Origin: an uncultured virus (IMG/VR IMGVR_UViG_3300005077_000019)
Taxonomy: Duplodnaviria > Heunggongvirae > Uroviricota > Caudoviricetes
IMG/VR virus record: IMGVR_UViG_3300005077_000019
Reading direction: 5' to 3' (one strand)
Length of the DNA: 64,000 bases
Positions 898 to 30,041 of this stretch are shown here, in pieces. How positions within the stretch are numbered: the first letter of the stretch is position 1; each line of letters begins with the position of its first letter. The notes under the pieces are model-generated. The model did no database searches. It saw only the letters and a list, made by a program, of their open reading frames with translations, and was not told the origin of the DNA. The translations under genes and the position numbers were made by a program.

Positions 898-1325
898 CCT
901 TCCTGTCCCGGCCTGGCCTGCCTCGCCGGTTCATGTGAAGCCTTTCCATGCCCGCCCCGACCCAGCCATCGCGCTTCTGGTCTCTCCTGCCAGTCCTCAC
1001 CACGTATTGCCCGTCCTCACCCGGCCGATTCAGTCCCGGGCATTCCGTTCCTGCCGATACGTTCCAAGCTCCTTCTTGTGCCTCCGTCGCACTACAAAGC
1101 GCGTCCAGCCTCACCTGCCTCTCCAATGGAAGCCCATCCTTGGCTCTCCAGATTCCGCCCGTCCTTACCCGCCGGTGCGCTCCCGTCCGTTCCTGTACTG
1201 TCCGATACGCACCCGGCCTTACCAGTGCTCGACTCACCTGCCTACTCTTGCCGTGCCTCGGTTTTCCGGGACGGGTACATCCGGGCCTCTCCTGCCCATC
1301 AAGCCGTTCCCATCCTGGTCACCAG
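898..1325 (-). repeat. Array B: 6 full units plus partial ends of 5-nt-periodic GGN-NN repeats
   Basis: cctgcc/cccgcc delimiters at 917, 986, 1050, 1114, 1168, 1237, 1291; spacings 69, 64, 64, 54, 69, 54, all 5n+4. Confidence 0.85.
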
Positions 1326-1356
1326 ATGTGGGGAGCCCGAAGGTCCCTTTGTACTG

Positions 1357-2244
1357 CTACGCCTGCGCCTGAGCCCGGGCGCTCTTGCGCTTGGTGGCCT
1401 TCTTGGCGCCGTTGCCCTTGTTCTCAGCAGCCGCCTCGATCTCCTTCTTGTCGAAGCCCCGCCGGACGAACTCCTCCTTCCACCAGTGGAAGAGCTCCTC
1501 GGACTCATCATCGTAGAAGTCCGGCGCTTCCATCGCCGTGATCTGCTCCGCGCGGCCGCAGTTGTTGACGATGCCCAGAAAGCGCGGGTCGTCGGGCGAG
1601 ACCACCTCGAAGCAGCCGAAGGTGCCGCTGCCCTTCTCCGCGCGCCAGTCACCGATGCCGCGCATGAAGCCGGCCGCGGAGAGCAAGCGGAGGACGACCT
1701 CCTGGCGCAGCACGGGCTTCACGTAGGTGAGGCGGACTTTGGTGGCCCACTGCGGGACCACAGCCCTGGTGCGGACGTCAGGCGTGCGGTTCATGTCCGC
1801 CATGCGGACGATTGTCATGCCCAGCCTGGGGATCCCCCACAGCGGCACGCGATCTTGGGGCGCGAAGAGAAGCCTGGAGAGCTGCGCCTTCGACGTGCCG
1901 GTGTCCGGGAGATCGAGGGGGAGACTGGCCATCGCCAGCTTGACCCCGGCTGCCACGATCTCCAGCAAGGTCTCGGACTTGGGGTCCTTGTTCGTGTACG
2001 GCGACTGCCGGTACTCCTCGTGGGGGATGTGCTTCAGGTTCGCCTGCTTCTGAGCCGACGTCTTCCTCCCCTGGGGAAATAGCAGCTCGCGCTGCGCCTT
2101 TTGGCTCATGCGGTTGAGCCAGATCGGAGTGGTACCCAGCAGGCACGCCTCGAACTCCCCGCGCTCGACGATTCCGATCTCCACCACTTTCTGTTCCTTC
2201 TTCTTCTCTGGCATTTCTGTCTCTCTTTCTTCTGGTGTATTCAA
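1357..2244 (-). CDS. Cas7/RAMP-like (RRM-fold) protein, VIPR-like effector candidate; alternative start at 2214
   Basis: N-terminal LLGTTPIWLNR strand and C-terminal glycine-rich loop AGFMRGIGDWRAEKGSGTFGCFEV, typical of RAMPs. Confidence 0.7.
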   Translation of the reverse strand: MNTPEERETEMPEKKKEQKVVEIGIVERGEFEACLLGTTPIWLNRMSQKAQRELLFPQGRKTSAQKQANLKHIPHEEYRQSPYTNKDPKSETLLEIVAAGVKLAMASLPLDLPDTGTSKAQLSRLLFAPQDRVPLWGIPRLGMTIVRMADMNRTPDVRTRAVVPQWATKVRLTYVKPVLRQEVVLRLLSAAGFMRGIGDWRAEKGSGTFGCFEVVSPDDPRFLGIVNNCGRAEQITAMEAPDFYDDESEELFHWWKEEFVRRGFDKKEIEAAAENKGNGAKKATKRKSARAQAQA

Positions 2245-2259
2245 TGTTCATTGTGGGTG

Positions 2260-2711
2260 TGCAATCGACCCACGATCAAATAACCACGCCAAGTCCCTCC
2301 CCGCTTCTGCTTGACCTTCCCGGCGAAGTCACGCTCCTCCGGTCCTGCCCGTCCATACCTCTTCGCGGCCCTCCTTGTGCCACCTGTCCACTTCGGGGCA
2401 ATCCTTTCTCTGCCTGCCTCTCCCGTCCTGTCCATACCCGGCCCAGTCCGGCCCTTCCCCGTCGCGCCTTGTAGATCCGCACCTGCCTCTCCACTCCGAT
2501 TACTCGCCCATCCGATTCTTTCACCACCGCGCCTCGCCTTGCCGCACCTGCCTCGTCACACCAGCCCCAGGCTAACCATGTCGTTTCTTGTGCGGTCTTC
2601 TCACTCCCGTCCAGACCTGCCTTGCCAGTTCTTGCGATGCCATGCCTCGTCTCAGCAAGTTTTGGCCATCCCTCACCTGCCGTGATCAGTAATAATCGTG
2701 GGTCGATTGCA
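2260..2711. repeat. Perfect 17-bp inverted repeat flanking array A
   Basis: tgcaatcgacccacgat at 2260-2276 and atcgtgggtcgattgca at 2695-2711. Confidence 0.9.
2285..2681 (-). repeat. Array A: 6 units of 5-nt-periodic GGN-NN repeats
   Basis: Delimiters at 2285 (cacgcc variant), 2344, 2413, 2482, 2547, 2616, 2676 (spacing 59, 69, 69, 65, 69, 60). Confidence 0.85.
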
Positions 2712-2716
2712 TATTT

Positions 2717-2750
2717 CTTATACCCTTGACAGACGCTTTTTGATTGATCA
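2717..2750 (-). promoter_or_regulatory. Putative phage promoter (GGGTATAAG) for the array/RAMP operon
   Basis: Same ATAAG box recurs upstream of many genes in the window. Confidence 0.55.
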
Positions 2751-3342
2751 CCATGCCCTTTGTGGAGGTGCTCAATGTATGTGACCGTCCTTGATGTGCG
2801 TGGCACACACGTGAACAACCCCGACTGCCCCATGCACCTGGCTCCCTTGCCCAACGACCGAGGATGGTACTGCGTGGACTGCGGCTGCGAGATCTTGCAC
2901 AAGAGGCTCGAGGTGGAGAGTCGTCACCTCGACTTCGATGACCTGGCCGGCCGGATGGGAGGTGCGGTGACGACTGTCCATGGCCGCCCGCCCATCACGC
3001 CCGAATGCACGTGCAATGACCCCGATGCCTATCGGGGTTGCCCTACACACGGTCACGTCCCGGATGGGACGGAAGGCAATCGGGGATGATCCTCTACGCC
3101 AAGCCGGGCACGCACTCAGCCCGGTACATGAGGGTCAAGTACAAGCGCAAGCTCCCACAGCTCAACGACTGCTTCCAGGCCCGAGACGCATCCGCCGGCC
3201 GGCACGAGCGGTGGTCCAGGTTCTGCGTGTGCGAGATCAAGGTTGTGGGTGGGCAGATGCTCTACTTTCTGGAGAGGATGTGAGCGGGATTGGGTTCATG
3301 TCATCCCCGGCACTCGAAGTATGATTGTTTCGGAGGTGACGC

Positions 3343-3666
3343 ATGAAAAGGGTAAGCATCGAAGTAGACCTGGAACTTCTGAGAGCTGTGTCCAAGAAGG
3401 CGAAGCAGCTCGAGCACGAGATCCTCGGACGACGAGCAGCACACGAAGCCCTGCTCGCTGAGGTCCATGAGCTGCGGCAAACTCTGCATAGCATCGCCCG
3501 CCAACATGGCTTTGCACTGCAGTTTGACCCGGATGACCTCACACCCGTGGACCCTAGGCCACGTAGCGATGCAACAGTTAACCGCTTGGTGGCGAGCTTG
3601 GAGGAGATAGACGAGAAAGAAAAAGACCTGGAGCGGCTACTCATAGCCGCTACCAAATCTAGGTAG
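3343..3666 (+). CDS. Hypothetical coiled-coil protein
   Basis: ORF with GGAGG RBS. Confidence 0.65.
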   Translation: MKRVSIEVDLELLRAVSKKAKQLEHEILGRRAAHEALLAEVHELRQTLHSIARQHGFALQFDPDDLTPVDPRPRSDATVNRLVASLEEIDEKEKDLERLLIAATKSR

Positions 3667-3871
3667 CACCCTGGAGGAGATCTCATGACCAAGAAGCTCC
3701 TGCGCTACATGCGCTCCATCCTCTACCGCCTCATCGGCCGGCACCTGGTGCCCAGATGAAACAGTTCCTCGTGTCCGCATTCATCATCACAGCCATCGCC
3801 ATCATCCTCTACCTCATCTCCCCCTTCCTGCTCTTCCACTGAGGGCTAAGGACGGCCGAAGCCGTCCCCCT

Positions 3872-4249
3872 CTACGTGTGACACTTGCTGCAGCGATTCA
3901 CCAACTTGTAAGTGGTGCCCTCGATCTTCTTCTTGCCATAGTACATGAAGTTTCTGCGCACCCCTCGGAGTCGTTCGGCCGGGATGAGCTCTTTGCAACC
4001 AGTACACCAGTAGGTCTCGTGAGCGTTGCATAGCCCATTCTTCTTCGTGGGTAGGATGCGCTCCTCACATCCCTCGTGCGCGCATCGGACTAGCTTGCCC
4101 CTCTTGCGCTCCGCTGCCCTGTCCTCGATGAGGTCTTTCCTGAACTCCTGCAATGAGTCAGCAAACTCATCCCGGTGTGTCCGCCGTAGAAGGACCTCGA
4201 TCAGCCTCAACATTGCGAATATCCCTTCGTACTCTTCTTTGTGGGCCAT
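3872..4249 (-). CDS. Hypothetical Cys-rich protein
   Basis: ORF with RBS and several CxxC motifs. Confidence 0.65.
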   Translation of the reverse strand: MAHKEEYEGIFAMLRLIEVLLRRTHRDEFADSLQEFRKDLIEDRAAERKRGKLVRCAHEGCEERILPTKKNGLCNAHETYWCTGCKELIPAERLRGVRRNFMYYGKKKIEGTTYKLVNRCSKCHT

Positions 4250-4278
4250 CTCTCACCTCCTTTCGTTTCCTGTTGGGC

Positions 4279-22220: not shown

Positions 22221-22256
22221 GAGGCCGCCTGGGAAACCCGGCGGCCTTTTCATTTT
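22221..22256 (+). terminator. Terminator/attenuator-like hairpin in the leader of the tRNA array
   Basis: aggccgcc-loop-ggcggcct followed by T-rich run. Confidence 0.6.
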
Positions 22257-22343
22257 GGGCGGTGCCAATAAGGTCGGCTGGGCCGACGCCGCGCTGTAAA
22301 CGCGGTCCCGAACGGGCAGGAGGTTCGATTCCTTCACCGCCCA
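22257..22343 (+). tRNA. tRNA-Tyr(GTA)
   Basis: ccgcg-ctGTAaa-cgcgg; T-loop; atypical D arm. Confidence 0.8.
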
Positions 22344-22432
22344 CTGGAGAGGAGGTGGACCATGCAATCACATCTGCACAAACAGAAGCCTGGATCAGTC
22401 CTGCCCTCGTCACCCAACTGGCAGGGAACCGG

Positions 22433-22508
22433 GCCGCCATAATTCAATCGGTAGAAAGCCGGCCTTTTAAGCCGGAAGTTGGGGGTTCGACTCCCTCTGG
22501 CGGCACCA
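22433..22508 (+). tRNA. tRNA-Lys(TTT)
   Basis: Cloverleaf with CCA. Confidence 0.9.
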
Positions 22509-22553
22509 AGGAGGTCGTGGTAGAGTAGTGCAGCTTTAACCCCTGGAGCTGCC

Positions 22554-22991
22554 ATGCCACGGAAGATGACTCGGAGGGAGTACAACGAACACATGCGGGT
22601 CTACATGCTGACCCGGATTCGACGGAGGCGAAAAGAGGCCAAGAAGTACCTGGGAGGGAAATGCGCGAAGTGCGGCTCGAAGAAGAAATTGGAGTTCGAT
22701 CATCGGGACCGGAAGGACAAGTCCCAGCGGATCGCAAAGATGTGGTCCTGGTCGGAGGAGAGATTCTGGGTGGAGATAGAGAAGTGCCAGTTGCTGTGTT
22801 TCGAGTGCCACAATGAGAAGTCTCTCAAGGAGCGTGGCTTCAAGAAGTCGAAGGGAGTCCATGGGACGGCTGGGAACTACAGGTACGGATGCCGCTGCGA
22901 TCTGTGCCGAAGAGCGAAGAGTGAGGAGCAGAAAGCGTACGTGCAGCGCAGACGGGGCCGAAGCATAGGCGGAGATGCACTGGGCTCTTAA
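22554..22991 (+). CDS. HNH homing endonuclease overlapping tRNA-Lys(CTT)
   Basis: GGKCAKCG..LEFDH..KCQLLCFECH. Confidence 0.85.
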   Translation: MPRKMTRREYNEHMRVYMLTRIRRRRKEAKKYLGGKCAKCGSKKKLEFDHRDRKDKSQRIAKMWSWSEERFWVEIEKCQLLCFECHNEKSLKERGFKKSKGVHGTAGNYRYGCRCDLCRRAKSEEQKAYVQRRRGRSIGGDALGS

Positions 22992-23028
22992 CCCAGAGAA
23001 CACGGTTCGAATCCGTGCGGCCTCACCA
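22954..23028 (+). tRNA. tRNA-Lys(CTT)
   Basis: ctggg-ctCTTaa-cccag; CCA. Confidence 0.85.
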
Positions 23029-23035
23029 GAGTTGT

Positions 23036-23109
23036 TCCGGGATCGTCCAATGGCAGGACACCAGGCTCTGACCCTGTGAATGGGGGTTCGACTCCCTCTC
23101 CCGGATCCA
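23036..23109 (+). tRNA. tRNA-Gln(CTG)
   Basis: Cloverleaf with CCA. Confidence 0.9.
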
Positions 23110-23205
23110 AGGAAGCGCTCGGCATGACGTCCGGGCGGGAGCTGGGGCCGCACCCTCAGCGCTTCGCTTGGCTTTGGCAACCGAATAGTAGGTCGTGGTC
23201 ACGGT

Positions 23206-23278
23206 GGACCTGTAGCGCAATGGCAAGCGCCACCGGCTCATAACCGGTTCGTTCCCGGTTCGAGTCCGGGCGGGTCCA
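23206..23278 (+). tRNA. tRNA with CAT anticodon (Ile2 or Met)
   Basis: ccgg-ctCATaa-ccgg. Confidence 0.85.
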
Positions 23279-23282
23279 CTCT

Positions 23283-23355
23283 GGAGAGGTAGCTCAACTG
23301 GTAGAGCGCCAGACTGAAGATCTGGTAGCGGGGGTTCGACTCCCTCCCTCTCCAC
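23283..23355 (+). tRNA. tRNA-Phe(GAA)
   Basis: Cloverleaf. Confidence 0.9.
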
Positions 23356-23359
23356 TCCT

Positions 23360-23432
23360 TCGGGTGTAGCTCAGCGGTAGAGCGCAGGGCTTTGACCCCT
23401 GGCCAGCGTGGGTTCGATCCCCACCACCCGAT
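23360..23432 (+). tRNA. tRNA-Gln(TTG)
   Basis: Cloverleaf. Confidence 0.85.
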
Positions 23433-23463
23433 CTGGGGCTAAGGGGAAACTTCCCCCTCCCTG

Positions 23464-23793
23464 CTAGTTCAGGACCGGCTTGTCCTTCCCCTCGAAGTGC
23501 TCTCGGTGATCGCGCAGAGTGTTGATCCGCGCGGCCGAGACCACGTTGTCGGCCAGGGCAGCCAGCTCTTTCCAGTTCTCCACGTACAACTCGATCGTGG
23601 AGAACTGGCACATCTTGCTGAGGTTGTCGATCATCATGTTGACGTGCTCCGCCACCTCCTGGATACGGACGGCGATGATCGCCACGTCGGAGATCAACGC
23701 TCCCTTCTCCTGGATGGCCAGGAGCTGCACCTCAAGGGCGTGCAGTTCCCACTTCAGCGTCCCCTCGGGGACCTTGTCCCAGTTGATGGGCAT
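23464..23793 (-). CDS. Hypothetical protein antisense within the tRNA array
   Basis: AGGAG RBS; promoter motif at 23819-23840. Confidence 0.7.
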   Translation of the reverse strand: MPINWDKVPEGTLKWELHALEVQLLAIQEKGALISDVAIIAVRIQEVAEHVNMMIDNLSKMCQFSTIELYVENWKELAALADNVVSAARINTLRDHREHFEGKDKPVLN

Positions 23794-23845
23794 GTGTAGA
23801 TTCTCCTTTCCTATGTTCCTTATCGCAAGATCTGAAGATCATTTT

Positions 23846-23918
23846 CGGGACGTGGCGGAGCTGGTACCGCGTCTGCTTTGGGAGCAGAAGATCGCAGGTT
23901 CGAATCCTGTCGTCCCGA
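23846..23918 (+). tRNA. tRNA-Pro(TGG)
   Basis: Cloverleaf. Confidence 0.9.
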
Positions 23919-23922
23919 TCAT

Positions 23923-23998
23923 GTACCTGTAGCTCAGAGGCTAGAGCAGCGGGCCGTTAACCCGCGTGTCGGGGGTTCGAGTCCCTCCAGGTACGCCA
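23923..23998 (+). tRNA. tRNA-Asn(GTT)
   Basis: gcggg-ccGTTaa-cccgc; CCA. Confidence 0.9.
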
Positions 23999-23999
23999 T

Positions 24000-24071
24000 C
24001 CACCAGAGGCTCAGAGGCAGAGCGCCCGCCCGATAAGCGGGAGGCCGTGAGTTCGAATCTCACCTGGTGGA
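24000..24071 (+). tRNA. tRNA-Ile(GAT)
   Basis: cccgc-ccGATaa-gcggg. Confidence 0.85.
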
Positions 24072-24076
24072 CTTGT

Positions 24077-24150
24077 GGTGGCTGTCGCCAAGTGGTCAAG
24101 GCGCGAGGTTGTGGCCCTCGTATCGTGGGTTCGATTCCCACCAGTCACCC
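24077..24150 (+). tRNA. tRNA-His(GTG)
   Basis: Cloverleaf with G-1. Confidence 0.9.
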
Positions 24151-24154
24151 TCAT

Positions 24155-24227
24155 GGGCCTGTGGCTCAGATGGGAGAGCACCCGGTTCGCATCCGGGAGG
24201 TCGCCGGTTCGATCCCGGCCAGGTCCA
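24155..24227 (+). tRNA. tRNA-Ala(CGC)
   Basis: Cloverleaf, G3:U70. Confidence 0.9.
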
Positions 24228-24296
24228 CCTCGATGGTCTAGCCACCTGCACGGTGGTGAAGGTAAGTGCAGCGGAGCTGCCGCCATTGGGAATCAT

Positions 24297-24369
24297 GGGA
24301 TCATAGCTCAGTTGGGAGAGCGCCTGCTCGGCATGCAGGAGGTCGGGGGTTCGACTCCCCCTGGTTCCA
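24297..24369 (+). tRNA. tRNA-Ala(GGC)
   Basis: Cloverleaf. Confidence 0.9.
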
Positions 24370-24391
24370 CTATTTTGATACCACTTTAGTT

Positions 24392-24476
24392 GGAGGGTAC
24401 TGCTCAAGGTGGGCAACGTGGCCCGAACCCACGGGCGGTCGCAAGGCCGGGCGTTCGATTCGTCTACCCTCCGCCA
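24392..24476 (+). tRNA. tRNA-Ser(CGA)
   Basis: Long variable arm, GCCA end. Confidence 0.8.
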
Positions 24477-24614
24477 GGAGATCAACATGGAAGAGGAAAG
24501 GAAGAGGCTCGAGGAGGTCATGGCAGCCCTGCCACTGATCTTCCTCGGCAAGGATAGCAAGAAGTACCACGAGGAAGTGACCAAGAGGTTGAAGGAGATC
24601 GAGCAGAAGAACTA

Positions 24615-24689
24615 GCCTCCGCGGACCAGCCAGGAGTGGTCGTCTCCCTGTCACGGAGAAGATCGTGGGTTCGAATCCCATCGGAGGCG
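24615..24689 (+). tRNA. tRNA-Asp(GTC)
   Basis: Cloverleaf. Confidence 0.9.
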
Positions 24690-24694
24690 CTGAT

Positions 24695-24767
24695 GCGACA
24701 GGAGCTCGGTTGGATGAGCGCCGGCTTCCCAAGCCGGAGGTTGCGGGTTCGACCCCCGTCTGTCGCT
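24695..24767 (+). tRNA. tRNA-Gly(CCC)
   Basis: Cloverleaf. Confidence 0.9.
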
Positions 24768-24769
24768 CT

Positions 24770-24853
24770 GGAAGGAACGGGAGAAGGCGTCCCAAGCACC
24801 CTGCTAAGGTGTCCGGTGTAACAGCCGCGTGGGTTCGAGTCCCACTCCTTCCG
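24770..24853 (+). tRNA. tRNA-Ser(GCT)
   Basis: Long variable arm. Confidence 0.8.
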
Positions 24854-24974
24854 CTGATCGGCCACTGCGCCAGGTGACAAGTGCCTCGGTGTCCTGCGGA
24901 CCATCTAGCTCATCGCGTAGTCGTTGCGCTGGACCCGTAAGGTCGTGGGTAAGAAGCCGAGGTCGCCGATCAAT

Positions 24975-25058
24975 GGAGAGCGAGAAGCAAGGTGCGCAAC
25001 CGCGTTGGAAGCGCGGGAGGGGATCACTCCCCGCTGGGTTCGATTCCCAGGCTCTCCG
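24975..25058 (+). tRNA. tRNA-Ser(GGA)
   Basis: Long variable arm. Confidence 0.8.
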
Positions 25059-25062
25059 CTAC

Positions 25063-25134
25063 GCACCCAAGGTGTTTGTGGCTGCACGCGGCGTTGCCAA
25101 CGCTGAGGAGAGGGTTCAACTCCCTCTGGGTGCT
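25063..25134 (+). tRNA. tRNA-Gly(GCC)
   Basis: Cloverleaf. Confidence 0.85.
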
Positions 25135-25138
25135 TCCT

Positions 25139-25213
25139 GCGAGAGTAGCCTAGCGGTCAGGCGTCAGCCTTCCAAGCTGATCGACGAGGGTTCGACTCCC
25201 TTCTCTCGCTCCA
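25139..25213 (+). tRNA. tRNA-Gly(TCC)
   Basis: Cloverleaf with CCA. Confidence 0.9.
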
Positions 25214-25214
25214 T

Positions 25215-25287
25215 CGAGGAGTAGGGCATTGGATGACCCGCTCGGTTCGGGACCGAGATCAAGCTGGTTCGATTCCAGTCTCCTCGA
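25215..25287 (+). tRNA. tRNA-Pro(CGG)
   Basis: Cloverleaf. Confidence 0.85.
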
Positions 25288-25290
25288 CTT

Positions 25291-25379
25291 GGCCTTGTGG
25301 CGGAATTGGTAGACGCACCGGATTCAGGGTCCGGCGGGGCGCAAGCCCCGTGCTGGTTCGACTCCAGTCAAGGCCACCA
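25291..25379 (+). tRNA. tRNA-Leu(CAG)
   Basis: Long variable arm, CCA. Confidence 0.9.
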
Positions 25380-25380
25380 T

Positions 25381-25452
25381 GCCCTGGAAGCAGATGTGGA
25401 GCTGCACCCGGTTCGTACCCGGGAGATCGGAGTTCGACTCTCCGCCAGGGCT
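25381..25452 (+). tRNA. tRNA-Thr(CGT)
   Basis: Cloverleaf. Confidence 0.85.
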
Positions 25453-25456
25453 CCGT

Positions 25457-25528
25457 GCCCCTGAAGCATTGCGGTGATGCACCCGGCCTGTACCCGGGAG
25501 ATGCGGGTTCGACTCCTGTCAGGGGCTC
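25457..25528 (+). tRNA. tRNA-Thr(TGT)
   Basis: Cloverleaf. Confidence 0.85.
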
Positions 25529-25601
25529 CGTGAAAAACACGCTGAAGACGTGGCATAAGAGAAATATTGTGCCCAAGGATGTAGCTTGGTCACTTTTGTT
25601 C

Positions 25602-25629
25602 TTGACAACGATCAGTGGATAGCTACACT
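25602..25629 (+). promoter_or_regulatory. Sigma70-like promoter upstream of the tRNA-like RNA cluster
   Basis: TTGACA-N16-TACACT. Confidence 0.6.
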
Positions 25630-25643
25630 GGTCGATCAGATAC

Positions 25644-25769
25644 GCCGGAGACGACCAACGGCAGGTCACTTGGCCTTTAACCAAGACAAACCCCGCTTGG
25701 CGCCTCGACCTCTTCGGAGGTCACTTTGCTAGGCCTACAAGAAACTGGGTTCGACTCCCAGCTCCGGCG
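25644..25769 (+). ncRNA. tRNA-like RNA 1 with about 60-nt conserved insert in the variable region
   Basis: Acceptor, D, anticodon and T arms plus GCTTGGC..UUCG hairpin..GCCTACAAG. Confidence 0.75.
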
Positions 25770-25773
25770 CCTT

Positions 25774-25908
25774 GGCCCGCTAGCCGAAATGGAAAAGGCA
25801 CCTTGTCTGTAAACGAGGAACAACTCATCCAGCTTGGCTACTCGGATCATTCGTGATCCATACTGCAGAGCCTACAAGAGACTCCAGGTTCGAGTCCTGG
25901 GCGGGCCT
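25774..25908 (+). ncRNA. tRNA-like RNA 2 with the same insert
   Basis: ggcccgc/gcgggcc acceptor; GCTTGGC at 25832, GCCTACAAG at 25870. Confidence 0.75.
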
Positions 25909-25929
25909 CTAGAGGTAGGGATGTGATGG

Positions 25930-26055
25930 GGGGAGCTGCGCCGGACGGTACCGGCACTTGCCATGGGAGCAAGCAAGCCAGCTTGGCGACTCGATCTCTT
26001 CGGAGATCACAGCGACAAGCCTACAAGACACCGGGTTCGACTCCCGGGCTCCCCC
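25930..26055 (+). ncRNA. tRNA-like RNA 3 with the same insert
   Basis: GCTTGGC at 25981, GCCTACAAG at 26019, T arm. Confidence 0.75.
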
Positions 26056-26079
26056 CATGACATCCCTACTGATCGAACT

Positions 26080-26223
26080 GAAACCGAGCGAGCAATCAGA
26101 CAAGCCTACAAGACACGTAGCTCAACAGGTAGAGCATCTGATCGAAACTCAGAGAGTAGCGGGTTCAAGTCCCGTCATGTCAAACCACTCCGCTTGACTA
26201 CTCGCTCGCTCGGTTTCTTTTTT
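26080..26223 (+). ncRNA. Y-RNA-like RNA: tRNA-like domain enclosed by the same motif in permuted order, with U tail
   Basis: 14-bp closing stem gaaaccgagcgagc/gctcgctcggtttc; GCCTACAAG at 26104, GCTTGACTA at 26192. Confidence 0.75.
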
Positions 26224-26288
26224 GCCTGATCCATCCATTCCTTTCACTCGATCTGCCTAGCAGATCATCCAACGACAAGGAGGCCGAT

Positions 26289-27437
26289 ATGGATGCGCAG
26301 CAGCGCGTGGAGGCGCTTGGTCCCGCTGAGCGGATCATCAACGCCATCACCCAGTACACGGACCACATGGTCCACAACCGTCCTGGTCTGGTGATCCAGG
26401 ACAACCGCTTCAAGGGTGGGTTGCGGTGGCAGCAGGCCACCTGGAAGAAGGAGGGGGACAGCAAGGTTGTCTACCTGACCCAGAAGGTGGGCAAGAGGAC
26501 GCAGAAGACGCGCGTCGGCGTGGGCGTTCCCGGAACGAGTGAGGTTCGGGAGAACGGCCGACTGGTGGGCCAGTTCCGCAACCCGGGGCTCTTCCCCGAG
26601 GTTGTGGCGCACCTCTACGAGCAGATCGCGGAGGTGTGGAAGATGGACAACGAGTTCGCCGCTCGGTGGGCGAGCTGGGCCTTCGCCAACGAGCAGAACC
26701 GGGATCTGAAGGTGCTGTTGGCGGCGTTCCTCCTGGTGCAGAACCGCTTCGGGGAGCAGATCAAGGAGGAGGGTGAGTCCTTCCTGGACGAGGACTACCG
26801 GGCGGTCGGGGAGGCGATGTGCCTCCTGCGCAGCAAGACGAAGGGCTACACCTTCAACCCGAAGATCCTGCTCCGGATCGGGGACGTCCTCTCCCTGCCC
26901 CAGGTCTGCGAGATCAACCGGAAGCTCGGCTTCGGTCGGACGGATCGGAACGCCATCGTGGGGCGGTACACCAAGGTGGTCGAGAAGTGGCTGCGCCAGA
27001 TGGAGCTGAACCAGCCGCTCTTCGAGAAGCTCGTCAACAAGGAGGGCTTCCGCCGGCAGATCATGGCGCTGGCCCGGAGGATCGGCTACAAGCCGACGAC
27101 CGAGAAGTTCTTCGATGTCCTGCGGTGGAAGCAGGTGCAGGGCAAGAGCGGTCACCGGACGATGGCGGTGGGCAAGGCCGTGAAGAAGGCGGAGACCTGG
27201 GAGGAGCTGAGCGAGGGTCAGATCTGCGAGAAGATCATCCTCGAGAAGCCGAGCTACAAGGTCATCGCTGGGCGGCTCCCCAGCTCGGTGGGGTTGACGC
27301 CGGCCATCATGGCGGCGCTACCAGCAGAGGAGCAGGTGACGCATGCGGGAACAGATGGTGGCCTTCCTCAACAGCCACAAGGGTCAGTTCTTCACCGCAT
27401 CGAAGCTTGCCGCAGAGCTCGGGTGGTGGCGGCGTAG
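26289..27437 (+). CDS. Large helical protein, putative divergent Ro60/TROVE-like; appears C-terminally truncated near 27317
   Basis: Strong RBS; directly follows the Y-like RNAs; last 40 codons overlap another ORF out of frame. Confidence 0.5.
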   Translation: MDAQQRVEALGPAERIINAITQYTDHMVHNRPGLVIQDNRFKGGLRWQQATWKKEGDSKVVYLTQKVGKRTQKTRVGVGVPGTSEVRENGRLVGQFRNPGLFPEVVAHLYEQIAEVWKMDNEFAARWASWAFANEQNRDLKVLLAAFLLVQNRFGEQIKEEGESFLDEDYRAVGEAMCLLRSKTKGYTFNPKILLRIGDVLSLPQVCEINRKLGFGRTDRNAIVGRYTKVVEKWLRQMELNQPLFEKLVNKEGFRRQIMALARRIGYKPTTEKFFDVLRWKQVQGKSGHRTMAVGKAVKKAETWEELSEGQICEKIILEKPSYKVIAGRLPSSVGLTPAIMAALPAEEQVTHAGTDGGLPQQPQGSVLHRIEACRRARVVAA

Positions 27438-27554
27438 TGGCGAGAAGAAGTGGCCGAAGGCCAGGGCCGCGGTGAAGTTCGCCAAGAAGTGCGGCGCGCG
27501 TGTGACGCGCCACAAGTCCGCAAACGAGCGCGGCTACTCTATCGAGGTGCCACG

Positions 27555-28136
27555 ATGAAGACGGTGGTGATCGTGGGCATGGGAGCGCTCGGCTCTCACC
27601 TCCTCCTCTTCGGCCGCAACTGGGAGGTACGTCTGCGGATGATCGACTTCGACAGGGTGGAGATGAAGAACACCCTGTCGCAGTTCCATACCCGTTATGG
27701 CCAGGGGAAGAACAAGGCCATGGCGCTGCAGCAACTGATGCTGGGGATGTGGGGCCTGAAGGTGGACGCGCACTCGGTGAAGATCGGCACGACGAACAGG
27801 GAAGTGATGTTCAAGCACGCCGACCTGATCATCGACTGCACGGACAACCTGGAGGCCCGGATCAACGTCATCGACTGGGTGACACGCAACCCGCAGATCG
27901 CGTGCCTGCATACCTGCCTGTCGGCAGATGGCAGCCTGGCCCGTATCGTCTGGACCGAGCACTTCACGCCCGACAAGGAGGATATGGTGGGTGAGGCGAC
28001 GTGCGAGGACGGACAGAACCTGCCGTTTCACGCACTGGCGGCTGCGAAGGCGGCGCACATCGTGCAGCGGTACCTCGAGAAGGGAGAGAAGCAGAGCTGG
28101 CAGCTCACACCTACCAGCATGATCCGTTTGACCTGA
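27555..28136 (+). CDS. ThiF/MoeB/E1-like adenylyltransferase
   Basis: VIVGMGALGS, IDFDRVEMKN, LIIDCTDN. Confidence 0.85.
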   Translation: MKTVVIVGMGALGSHLLLFGRNWEVRLRMIDFDRVEMKNTLSQFHTRYGQGKNKAMALQQLMLGMWGLKVDAHSVKIGTTNREVMFKHADLIIDCTDNLEARINVIDWVTRNPQIACLHTCLSADGSLARIVWTEHFTPDKEDMVGEATCEDGQNLPFHALAAAKAAHIVQRYLEKGEKQSWQLTPTSMIRLT

Positions 28137-28197
28137 ATCCCAGCCAGGGCCGGAAGGCAGCAACTGGGGGTGAACGCCCACCTGTGAGTAGGCGTGA
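28105..28197 (+). ncRNA. ffs: SRP (4.5S)-like RNA
   Basis: Domain IV motif CAGG-gcc-GGAA-ggc-AGCA on a long imperfect hairpin. Confidence 0.65.
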
Positions 28198-28219
28198 CAG
28201 TCGGGAGAGACCGGCGTTT

Positions 28220-28291
28220 GGCCCCGTAGTCTAGTGGTCAGGACGCTGGCCTCTCACGCCGGAATCCCGGGTTCAAATCCCGGCGGGGTCA
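28220..28291 (+). tRNA. tRNA-Glu(CTC)
   Basis: Cloverleaf. Confidence 0.9.
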
Positions 28292-28295
28292 TCAT

Positions 28296-28371
28296 GGCGC
28301 CATCGTCTAGTTGGGCAGGACACCGGCCTTTCACGTCGGCAGCACGGGTTCAAGTCCCGTTGGCGTCACCA
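28296..28371 (+). tRNA. tRNA-Glu(TTC)
   Basis: Cloverleaf with CCA. Confidence 0.9.
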
Positions 28372-28666
28372 GGGTATAGGAGATAGGAATGAACGAGGTA
28401 GACAAGGAAGCGTTGCGACTCTTTCATGAGGGGACCTCTTCGGCAGTGAGGGGTGCAATGGGGCATCTGCTTAGGAATGCTCTCTGTCCGCTCTCGACCC
28501 AGATCTCCACGTTGGAGATCTGTCCGGATAGCCTCCAGGAGATCTGTCCGGAGATGAAGGTGACCATGAGGAAGATCGTCAAGTTGCTTGATGCGATGAC
28601 CGACTAGATCGCGTAGCTCAGCAGGAAGAGCTTGATTTGTAGTCTAGGTTGGGCTACGCTCTTTTC

Positions 28667-29188
28667 ATGCCCGTATGCGAAAAGTGTGGTGATCGGTTTC
28701 CGAATCGCATGGAGATCGGCGGCATTGTTCGGATGCTGAAGAATCGGAAGTACTGTCTGAGGTGCTCGCCGTTCAAGAAGCACAACACCAAGCAGTTGCA
28801 TGTGGATCGATCGGTCGACTGTGTATGCGTGCAGTGTGACCGGGAGTATCTCTACAGCAAGGATGCCGGACACACCAGATCGCTGTGCAACAGTTGTCGA
28901 TTGAAGCGATGGCGCAGGAAGATGAAGGCTAGGGCGGTGGAGTACAAGGGGGGTAGTTGTCGCCATTGTGGGTATGATCGGTGTCTGGAGGCGTTGGACT
29001 TTCATCATCCAGAGTCAGAGAGTAAAGAGGCCGGGGTGTCAGCTTTGTACAACCGATCGTGGGAAGTGATCCGTAAGGAGTTGGATAAGTGCGAGCTGGT
29101 GTGTTGTCGATGTCACGCGGAGATTCACAGTGAGACGATGATCGGTCCCGTTAGCTCAGAGGAAGAGCAACCGCTTGACGTGCGGTAG
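28667..29188 (+). CDS. HNH homing endonuclease overlapping tRNA-Val(GAC)
   Basis: YKGGSCRHCGY..ALDFHH..ELDKCELVCCRCHAEIH. Confidence 0.85.
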   Translation: MPVCEKCGDRFPNRMEIGGIVRMLKNRKYCLRCSPFKKHNTKQLHVDRSVDCVCVQCDREYLYSKDAGHTRSLCNSCRLKRWRRKMKARAVEYKGGSCRHCGYDRCLEALDFHHPESESKEAGVSALYNRSWEVIRKELDKCELVCCRCHAEIHSETMIGPVSSEEEQPLDVR

Positions 29189-29216
29189 GCCGGAAGTTCG
29201 ATCCTTCCACGGGGCA
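29145..29216 (+). tRNA. tRNA-Val(GAC)
   Basis: accgc-ttGACgt-gcggt. Confidence 0.8.
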
Positions 29217-29473
29217 CCGGAGGACGACATGAACGCAAGAGTCACTGTTGAGTTCGCTGGTCAGAAGGTGGTGATGGAACTCGAGGAGTTCTCTATGCAG
29301 GAGACTCGAGACCTCATCAATGACTACGACAGCGATGGTACGCGGATCAACATTCGGGAAAATCCAGCGAATCCAGGTGTGATGGTCAAGATCGTGGGAC
29401 GACGGTTGAAGAAGGCAGAAAGGGTGTCTGTCTGAGCGCTGGAGGTCGCAGGTTCGAAGCCTGCCGCGGTCAC

Positions 29474-29545
29474 GGGCTGGTAGCTCAATGGGAGAGCGCC
29501 CGGCTTGCACCCGGGAGGTTGTGGGTTCGATCCCCATCCGGTCCA
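29474..29545 (+). tRNA. tRNA-Ala(TGC)
   Basis: Cloverleaf. Confidence 0.9.
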
Positions 29546-29592
29546 CTGGGCCCCCGCCGAGAAACCGATCGGCGTTTTTGGTATAAGGCTGA

Positions 29593-29665
29593 TGAGAACG
29601 GAGGTAGCCCTCCGCCCCTGTCCCCCCCTCAGTGGTGGAGGCACTTCCGTTCTCGTTTTTTTTTT
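29593..29665 (+). ncRNA. Small stem-loop RNA with C-rich loop and U10 tail
   Basis: gagaacggaggt/acttccgttctc stem right after promoter motif 29567-29587. Confidence 0.5.
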
Positions 29666-29738
29666 GCCCCGGAAGTCCATCTGGTGAGGACGCCTGCTTG
29701 GTACGCAGGAGGTGGCGGTTCGATTCCGCCTCGGGGCT
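29666..29738 (+). tRNA. tRNA-Thr(GGT)
   Basis: Cloverleaf. Confidence 0.9.
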
Positions 29739-29742
29739 CCGT

Positions 29743-29811
29743 GGGGTCAAGGCCATGGTGGCCAAACGGTCTCCAAAACCGTAGGAGAGGGTTCGATTCC
29801 TTCTGGCCCCG
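29743..29811 (+). tRNA. tRNA-Trp(CCA)
   Basis: acggt-ctCCAaa-accgt. Confidence 0.85.
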
Positions 29812-29816
29812 CTGAT

Positions 29817-29890
29817 GAGTCCGTCGCCAAGAGGCAAGGCACCAGGCTGCAACCCTGGCAACGTCGGTTCGACTCCGACCGGACTCTCCA
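29817..29890 (+). tRNA. tRNA-Cys(GCA)
   Basis: Cloverleaf, U73, CCA. Confidence 0.85.
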
Positions 29891-29891
29891 C

Positions 29892-29964
29892 GCACCCGTA
29901 GCTCAATGGACAGAGCAGCCGGCTTCTACCCGGCTGGTTGGGGGTTCGAGTCCCTCCGGGTGTA
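29892..29964 (+). tRNA. tRNA-Arg(TCT)
   Basis: Cloverleaf. Confidence 0.9.
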
Positions 29965-29965
29965 C

Positions 29966-30040
29966 GCCCCGATCGTCTAAGGGAGAGGGCACTGGCCTCC
30001 TAAGCCGGGAATGCAGGTTCGAGTCCTGCTCGGGGTACCA
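29966..30040 (+). tRNA. tRNA-Arg(CCT)
   Basis: Cloverleaf with CCA. Confidence 0.9.
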
Positions 30041-30041
30041 C

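Follow-up and report, generated by a model that had tools for sequence, protein, structure and literature searches.

An SRP RNA-like hairpin in the tRNA array of a phage-like genome and its counterparts in other large viral contigs

The 64,000-nucleotide stretch of viral DNA analysed here (the window; IMG/VR record IMGVR_UViG_3300005077_000019, from an uncultured member of the Caudoviricetes) contains, just past the stop codon of a ThiF-family gene and on the strand of a large tRNA array, a short hairpin that is homologous in sequence and structure to domain IV of bacterial signal recognition particle (SRP) RNA. The hairpin shares its orientation with the tRNA genes, and hairpins of the same kind recur in other viral contigs with compensatory changes. 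We suggest, with a probability of roughly 0.6, that the element is a phage-borne mini SRP RNA, one that copies the apical domain IV (helix 8) and engages the Ffh protein of the host. None of the ORFs scanned was identified as a capsid or terminase gene, and the word phage is used here on the basis of gene content and relatives.

The letters that the first-pass annotation of this DNA gave for the core and for three pairings outside it are all in place (Table 1), and its reading of the core as the domain IV signature of SRP RNA is borne out by the alignment of the core to positions 32-60 of the Rfam family of bacterial small SRP RNAs, RF00169. The hairpin at 28139-28168 is solid: it consists of the helix CCCAG/CUGGG, a symmetric 5/5 loop (C-CAGG / AGCA-A), the stem GCC/GGC and a GGAA tetraloop, and the minimum free energy fold computed with ViennaRNA is the hairpin originally proposed. 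A pair between U28138 and G28169 can lengthen the CCCAG/CUGGG helix to 6 bp; finding six contiguous pairs at this fixed register beside the symmetric loop has a p of 0.0023 in shuffled sequences and of 0.0036 against a background of real sequence. The 19-nt core occurs a single time in the window, for which 0.06 matches would be expected at up to 3 mismatches.

Table 1. Coordinates of the SRP RNA-like element, its structural parts and neighbouring genes (positions in the window unless a locus is named).
Feature	Position	Strand	Details
ThiF-family gene	27555-28136	+	193 aa from ATG 27555, GTG 27450 also open; PF00899, E 1e-17
Possible 95-nt hairpin of 4.5S length, the extended form of the first-pass annotation	28104-28198	+	R1 31.3 bits; folding z -1.52
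Outer helix, tcacacctac/gtaggcgtga in DNA: UCACACCUAC with GUAGGCGUGA	28105-28114 with 28188-28197	+	9/10 pairs, one A/C mismatch
Probable 52-nt form	28125-28176	+	Inner hairpin and second helix closing an asymmetric internal loop; folding z -0.94
Second helix (marginal), cgttt-acc/ggtgaacg in DNA: CGUUU-ACC with GGUGAACG	28125-28129 and 28131-28133 with 28169-28176	+	G28130 bulged
Internal-loop 5' strand, UGAAU(C)	28134-28138	+	Matches the GAAUC asymmetric-loop strand of bona fide SRP RNAs (R1, high posterior)
Robust mini SRP-like hairpin	28139-28168	+	RF00169 local match; helix p 0.002-0.004; architecture shared by 12 phage elements
Helix CCCAG/CUGGG (cccag/ctggg in DNA)	28139-28143 with 28164-28168	+	Abuts the symmetric loop
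Core, CAGG-GCC-GGAA-GGC-AGCA	28145-28162	+	Ffh M-domain / FtsY contact signature of SRP RNA
CAGG / AGCA strands of the symmetric internal loop	28145-28148 / 28159-28162	+	RF00169 alignment, posterior 1.00
GGAA tetraloop (GNRA) on 3-bp stem GCC/GGC	28149-28158	+	Read from the letters and the RF00169 alignment
tRNA-Glu (CTC)	28219-28293	+	First gene downstream; starts 57 nt past the core
tRNA-Glu (TTC)	28296-28371	+	
tRNA-Tyr (GUA), class II	about 22256-22344	+	Anticodon loop CUGUAAA; Rfam and relaxed ARAGORN
tRNA-Ser (CGA), class II	about 24392-24476	+	Rfam and relaxed ARAGORN
HNH homing-endonuclease genes (n=3), inside the tRNA array	28649-29188, 30338-30937, 33231-33959	+	
tmRNA genes of relatives	L054:4154-4599, L059:2218-2662, L063:4400-4778, L064:3766-4144		

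At the Rfam gathering thresholds only tRNAs are called in the window, and no SRP RNA. With permissive filters RF00169 matches 28139-28167 (+) nearly letter for letter, with a score of 29.2 bits where the gathering threshold is 40, in a local alignment that covers model positions 32-60 of 97. The E-value of this match is 2.3e-4 in a search of 301 nt and 0.049 when the whole window is compared to all 4227 families, the latter being borderline when taken alone. The score that the first-pass annotation had named as a check on its proposal is thus significant, yet it remains below the gathering threshold; the core is a near-perfect domain IV, and the locus is nevertheless not called an SRP RNA by Rfam. 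A full 4.5S RNA, a wider claim, does not stand by the same standard, with a score below 40 bits, an alignment that is local and a distal motif that faces a gap.

We also searched with a second covariance model, R1, which was built from an alignment of the 45 SRP RNAs from bacteria whose core type is closest, and whose E-values are roughly calibrated. Over the 64-kb window it gives one strong match at 28104-28198 (+), with 31.3 bits and an E-value of about 2e-6, spanning model positions 1-97 and ending within one base of the limits originally drawn for the element; the next-best match listed in the window has 10.5 bits (E 3). We considered this full-length alignment as proof of a full 4.5S RNA and rejected it, as three of the short viral hairpins described below (L036, L037 and L054) also align full length to R1, at 18-26 bits, so that the alignment is not diagnostic. 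In the R1 alignment of the window element, the letters that are conserved at the distal end of bona fide SRP RNAs stand opposite a gap, and neither the RF00169 nor the R1 alignment shows an extended helix 5 bearing this distal motif, at which the GTPase docks.

Two further helices can be drawn around the hairpin. The second helix, with 8 pairs, one bulge and SRP-like loop sizes, gave p values of 0.063 and 0.039 when its register was constrained and is marginal; this test replaces a p of 0.83 obtained with duplexfold, where the best duplex used other pairings. The 52-nt form that includes this helix is probable. Its internal loop carries on the 5' side the strand that continues into GAATCCC, a motif shared without variation by the 45 bacterial SRP RNAs but itself fixed by the search pattern, and on the 3' side no clear unpaired base. 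For the outer helix, the duplex energy has a p of 0.21 in shuffles and of 0.15 among random window segments, and shuffling the whole 3' arm gives a p of 0.22 for the pairing of the arms. The folding z-score is +0.36 with flanks included and -1.52 at 28104-28198, where the ends were chosen after the fact; the latter value is in the range of the 45 real SRP RNAs (-1.73 +/- 0.83), and we regard the 95-nt form as possible. The element had been described as overlapping the ThiF stop codon. Such an overlap arises only through the weaker outer layers, with the outer pairing at chance level, and what can be retained is that the stop codon lies in the internal loop, TGA at 28134-28136 being the first three bases of its 5' strand; the robust hairpin begins 2-3 nt past the stop codon.

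The element is located between the ThiF gene and tRNA-Glu, on the strand of the tRNAs, within a tRNA array at 22258-35000 of a window with a GC content of 61%. ARAGORN finds 45 tRNA genes at 22.4-35.0 kb, 44 of them on the + strand. Two class-II tRNAs are missed at default settings; when both are included the array has at least 47 tRNA genes, covering all 20 amino acids. The other genes of the window include a deoxynucleoside kinase, RNase HII, a ParB-like protein, a DNA ligase-like protein and a weak endolysin match; neither Ffh nor an integrase was found among the 35 ORFs scanned with Pfam.

Relatives of this locus were sought through the small ThiF protein, which ends in ...QLTPTSMIRLT, a C-terminus that is conserved in relatives, and which has 1132 homologues at E <=1e-10, mostly of about 192 aa, the closest being 88, 80 and 73% identical. 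From metagenome contigs we took 80 ThiF-relative loci with 42-62% identity, and seven of these are syntenic with the window (L053-L056, L059, L063 and L064), sharing the order ThiF, tRNA-Glu(CTC), tRNA-Glu(TTC), Val, Ala, Thr, Trp, Cys, Arg. Four of the seven carry a tmRNA gene in the same array, with scores of 92-116.5 bits; in the window neither Rfam nor ARAGORN finds a tmRNA, and the gap between tRNA-Ala and tRNA-Thr is only 120 nt. That a phage should carry stable RNAs of its own, as the first-pass annotation had supposed, fits the tRNAs for 20 amino acids in the window and the tmRNAs of these relatives. Searches elsewhere brought little: the isolated-phage collection has neither a relative of the 1265-aa protein nor a phage with the core, for which it gave six weak matches (E 1-4), five of them falling within protein genes that are annotated and one in a record that lacks annotation; locus searches with single proteins yielded no usable close relatives from viral contigs. 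The nearest named DNA match to the ThiF gene, Virus Rctr197k, was set aside, its sole RF00169 match having 13.7 bits and lying at another place.

Similar hairpins are found in other viral contigs. A pattern of 16 specified bases, which fixes the core, retrieved 45 loci from 2.9 million viral contigs, and 40 of these (all except L041-L045) were covered by an Rfam scan. The loci fall into four groups. The first consists of ordinary SRP RNAs at or above the Rfam threshold, on short contigs or at contig ends, among them the two copies L004 and L039 of a single contig taken up below. The second consists of chance matches within coding sequence that have 0-2 flanking pairs (L001, L003, L005, L012/L033, L015/L016, L024, L031 and L034). 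A third group lies near tRNAs on contigs of 101-497 kb and is at or above the threshold: L002/L011 with 57.7 bits, L021 with 42.1 and L028/L043 with 40.7, where the score of L043, outside the Rfam scan, was taken from the identical stretch of L028. The fourth group is formed by short hairpins in tRNA arrays, with 22.6-38.3 bits (L006/L007, L014, L017, L027, L035, L036, L037 and L041). Among the 45 loci, 12 have at least five tRNAs within 1.5 kb, in every case on the strand of the element and never opposite to it, and when L054 and the window are counted, every case in a tRNA array is co-oriented. The window element itself is on the tRNA strand of a phage-like tRNA array, and similar, co-oriented hairpins occupy tRNA arrays in at least nine other large viral contigs.

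When folded, the phage elements have a common layout of a stem, a 5/5 loop, a 3-bp stem and GGAA. We counted covariation in 13 rows (12 of them distinct), using only positions that the search pattern leaves free. Paired cells make up 90.6% in the phage rows vs 58.0% in shuffles, and cells that are changed on both sides number 29 vs 10.4; the covariation score is 0.773 as compared to 0.170 in shuffles, of which 0/500 reach 0.773, and to 0.051-0.163 in slid controls. In 12/12 rows the four pairs closest to the loops are formed, and each of these four occurs as 3-5 pair types. The viral hairpins may be separate captures of pieces of host ffs, in which case the covariation reflects constraints on SRP RNA rather than selection in phages; as the rows are perhaps independent captures, the count shows that the SRP structure is kept in the phage copies, and not how long they have evolved in phages.

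The mini hairpins (L014, L017, L006/7, L027, L036, L037, L041, L035 and, from the syntenic relatives, L054) resemble the window element in this layout, in RF00169 scores of 22.6-30.6 bits (38.3 for L035), in lying on the tRNA strand and in a distance to the tRNA that is often 25 nt or less. They differ from it in that the window element has a possible second and third helix, which would bring it to 4.5S size, and in that its 5' side abuts, and partly uses, the end of a protein-coding gene. The record of L014 (435.8 kb, with terminal repeats) is rated 100% complete; here, too, the hairpin comes directly behind a stop codon and is followed by a tRNA. In L035 (positions 1472-1550; 38.3 bits), on an 84-kb viral contig, a U-run directly follows the hairpin; because of this U-run, the L035 hairpin may be a small RNA that stands alone and has its own terminator, and not one processed together with a tRNA.

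The alternative that survives best, although we regard it as unlikely, is that the element is a non-functional relic, namely a piece of host ffs that was gained by recombination in the tRNA array (e.g. by way of HNH endonucleases) and has not yet decayed. Such an origin would be in line with the distribution of the element: among the 80 relatives an SRP-like element is found in L054 only, by regular expression and by R1 alike, and in the eight loci scanned with RF00169 again only L054 matches (30.6 bits, positions 33-60). The L054 element sits 25 nt past tRNA-Glu(CTC), hence after rather than before this gene, although within 100 nt of the equivalent place, and its stems are unlike those of the window element. 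The spacer between the ThiF stop codon and tRNA-Glu measures 12, 83, 1, 50, 307, 36 and 43 nt in the seven relatives and 82 nt in the window. With one of seven relatives positive, a different slot and variable spacers, we take the element to be a sporadic insert rather than a fixed part of the locus. The three HNH endonuclease genes in the array also fit the recombination scenario, and they are a plausible means of shuffling its contents, the SRP-like insert included.

The comparison with bacteria bears on a relic in both directions. A search of 185,579 species' genomes with the core type of the window gave 45 matches, and many bacterial SRP RNAs have exactly the core of the window element, as a relic not yet decayed would have it. 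The form in the window, GAAUCCC-A-GCCAGGGCCGGAAGGCAGCAAC-U-GG, differs from the bacterial 31-nt form solely by one extra A-U pair in the helix; this compensated insertion of a base pair, which by its sequence is a structure-preserving change, argues against decay. The exact form of the window is absent from all 185,579 species' genomes, and the extra pair is seen in 0/45 bacterial matches. Against a relic stand also contigs from soil and marsh metagenomes (X1 record 3, X12 record 10 and X9 record 28) that span the element at about 88-98% identity: they have no indel in 28105-28197, as opposed to three (at 28205, 28211 and 28217) in the 22-nt spacer behind it. The exact 30-mer gave 0 matches in metagenome contigs. 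Also against a relic, the same truncated layout is present in at least nine other distinct phage tRNA arrays, always co-oriented.

Grouped by record title (our own grouping), the 45 bacterial matches comprise 27 of Verrucomicrobiota type, 8 of Armatimonadota type, 5 from Rhodothermales/Bacteroidota and 5 others; the bias towards the Verrucomicrobiota type is a weak lead to the donor or host. One of the matches, L159, belongs to a metagenome-assembled genome labelled Bifidobacterium, and over the aligned stretch its SRP RNA region equals that of L168, from a Verrucomicrobiia assembly; the L159 contig is probably mis-binned.

The hairpin could also be a cis-acting processing or stability element at the junction of the ThiF mRNA and the pre-tRNA, with an incidental likeness to SRP RNA, which we consider quite improbable. 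Its position directly past the stop codon and upstream of a tRNA, as in L014, would suit such a role, as would the lack of a promoter and terminator of its own: 26000-29300 contains no promoter-like site according to a sigma-70 scan, and the five terminator-like sites found in a terminator scan all lie away from the element. A generic hairpin of this kind, however, needs no exact CAGG/AGCA loops and no GGAA, and yet these are kept while the stems vary; the syntenic relatives, in addition, do without it, with spacers anywhere from 1 to 307 nt.

A chance match in GC-rich DNA is very improbable. The whole-window E-value and the score below the gathering threshold might be taken to speak for it, and the 16-base pattern does match viral coding regions as well (the second group above); these coding-region matches have 0-2 flanking pairs, though, as compared to 6 here, and with R1 they score 9.5-13.8 bits where listed (n=6, with no match for L005 and L012 at E <=10) vs 31.3 for the window element, which furthermore lies on the tRNA strand inside a tRNA array and has a counterpart close to the equivalent place in the syntenic L054.

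An attP-type remnant of integration into host ffs is hardly credible: phages and islands do integrate into ffs, as described in the abstract of PMC12540744, and one contig discussed next may be a case in point, but the core att sequence given there is without the apical loop motifs whereas here only the apical part is kept, no integrase is found among the 35 Pfam-scanned ORFs, and the arms make a self-contained hairpin. The contig in question, of 18,403 nt and viral, has SRP RNA copies near both ends (L004, positions 1238-4255, and L039, 15590-18403; 77.8 and 33.6 bits), and these two copies suggest a prophage or island that may have integrated in ffs with duplication of the att region.

Returning to a mini SRP RNA that engages host Ffh, we infer transcription, processing, Ffh binding and an effect on the host from sequence and genomic setting. 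The element would be transcribed together with the ThiF and tRNA genes, and its 3' side would be freed by RNase P cleavage at tRNA-Glu and subsequent trimming. The M domain of host Ffh would then be bound through the symmetric loop, and probably through the GAAUC loop too, and the GGAA tetraloop would recruit FtsY, so that the particle would meet FtsY but be poorly activated. Among five near-complete phage records that carry such RNAs, none has an Ffh M domain and none has an SRP54-type GTPase domain above the cut-off, and the Ffh partner would therefore be that of the host. Isolated domain IV RNAs are known to bind Ffh tightly in vitro. The roles that we assign to the M-domain site, the tetraloop and the distal end of SRP RNA follow passages of PMC4737761 and PMC4091067, in which the Ffh M domain is described as binding SRP RNA with picomolar affinity, and the tetraloop as being bound by the FtsY NG domain in the early complex.

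The window element keeps the M-domain site and the tetraloop and has no recognisable distal site. The RNA may thus act as a decoy, or form a particle with altered kinetics, by which host SRP activity would be changed or captured; we hold this to be possible, at less than even odds. Plain topping-up or replacement of 4.5S RNA is a more doubtful option, the decoy or modulator being likelier because the distal GTPase-activation motif is not recognisable. The remaining readings are a real element with another role, or one without function. More broadly, we speculate that large phages might use truncated SRP RNAs, excised from tRNA transcripts, for host takeover, loading Ffh, recruiting FtsY and stalling or re-timing targeting without the distal end; we offer this tentatively and think it rather unlikely to hold, and if true it would be a viral seizure of the co-translational targeting pathway at the RNA level.

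Compared to bacterial small SRP RNA (4.5S RNA, ffs, RF00169), the element shares the 3-bp stem capped by GGAA, the CAGG/AGCA loop with the helix next to it, and the GAAUC strand, and its possible length of 95 nt and its folding z lie in the range of the family. Unlike the bacterial RNAs, it scores below the gathering threshold, aligns only locally to RF00169, leaves the distal motif opposite a gap in the R1 alignment, has a helix one base pair longer (a form seen in none of the 45 bacterial matches) and resides in a phage-like tRNA array without a promoter or terminator of its own. The full-length RNAs on huge viral contigs (L002/L011, L021 and L028/L043) are likewise SRP RNA homologues near tRNA genes on contigs of phage scale; in contrast to the window element they pass the Rfam threshold, and L021 and L028, judged by eye, seem to have a promoter-like upstream sequence. 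L013, with 58.7 bits, is in a record classed as a provirus, and for this reason its SRP RNA may be host DNA.

Phage tRNAs and tmRNAs are well known. The tRNA arrays and tmRNAs of huge phages (Al-Shayeb et al. 2020, PMC7162821) are similar to the present case in that large phages carry stable, translation-related RNAs of host type, and differ from it in that SRP RNA serves protein targeting and not decoding; the main text of that survey mentions tmRNA 5 times, and SRP, 4.5S and 'signal recognition' 0 times. A precedent for reduction is given by plastid SRP RNAs, which, according to passages of PMC4091067, can be strongly reduced or altered with the part that binds Ffh/cpSRP54 being kept; these are organelle genes with a resident SRP54, whereas the partner of the phage element would be that of the host. 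In the literature searched, which comprised sources outside subscription journals, we found no description of a phage-encoded SRP RNA. Text matches to 'SRP' in phage papers were discarded as they are read-archive accession numbers; the abstract of PMC12540744 treats ffs as an attachment site only, and passages of PMC6582537 mention 4.5S RNA and phage-derived tRNA clusters separately.

An SRP RNA borne by a virus would widen the reach of phage control from decoding and ribosome rescue to the targeting of membrane proteins, and the presence of such an element suggests that large phages may interfere with, or support, the membrane-targeting pathway of the host. The recurring phage versions are at the same time a natural deletion series of SRP RNA, built on the apical domain, in which the asymmetric loop and the distal end can each be present or absent. 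Since the Rfam threshold misses them, mini SRP hairpins are probably under-annotated in viral genomes. The element in the window is short and sharply defined, which makes it open to direct testing.

Some features of the tRNA array itself should be mentioned. The sole tRNA on the opposite strand, tRNA-Met (CAT) at 34927-35000 (-), lies at the end of the array. A sub-threshold match to the Y RNA-like family YrlA at 29421-29516 (+), with 34.1 bits against a gathering score of 69 (E 0.0013), starts about 50 nt upstream of tRNA-Ala and extends into it, and another such match, with 28.2 bits, is seen in a syntenic relative (L053:3547-3600); the match in the window may just mirror that half of YrlA which is tRNA-like. 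A gene at 31555-32685 (-), midway through the array, encodes a protein with an FGE-sulfatase (formylglycine-generating enzyme-like) domain.
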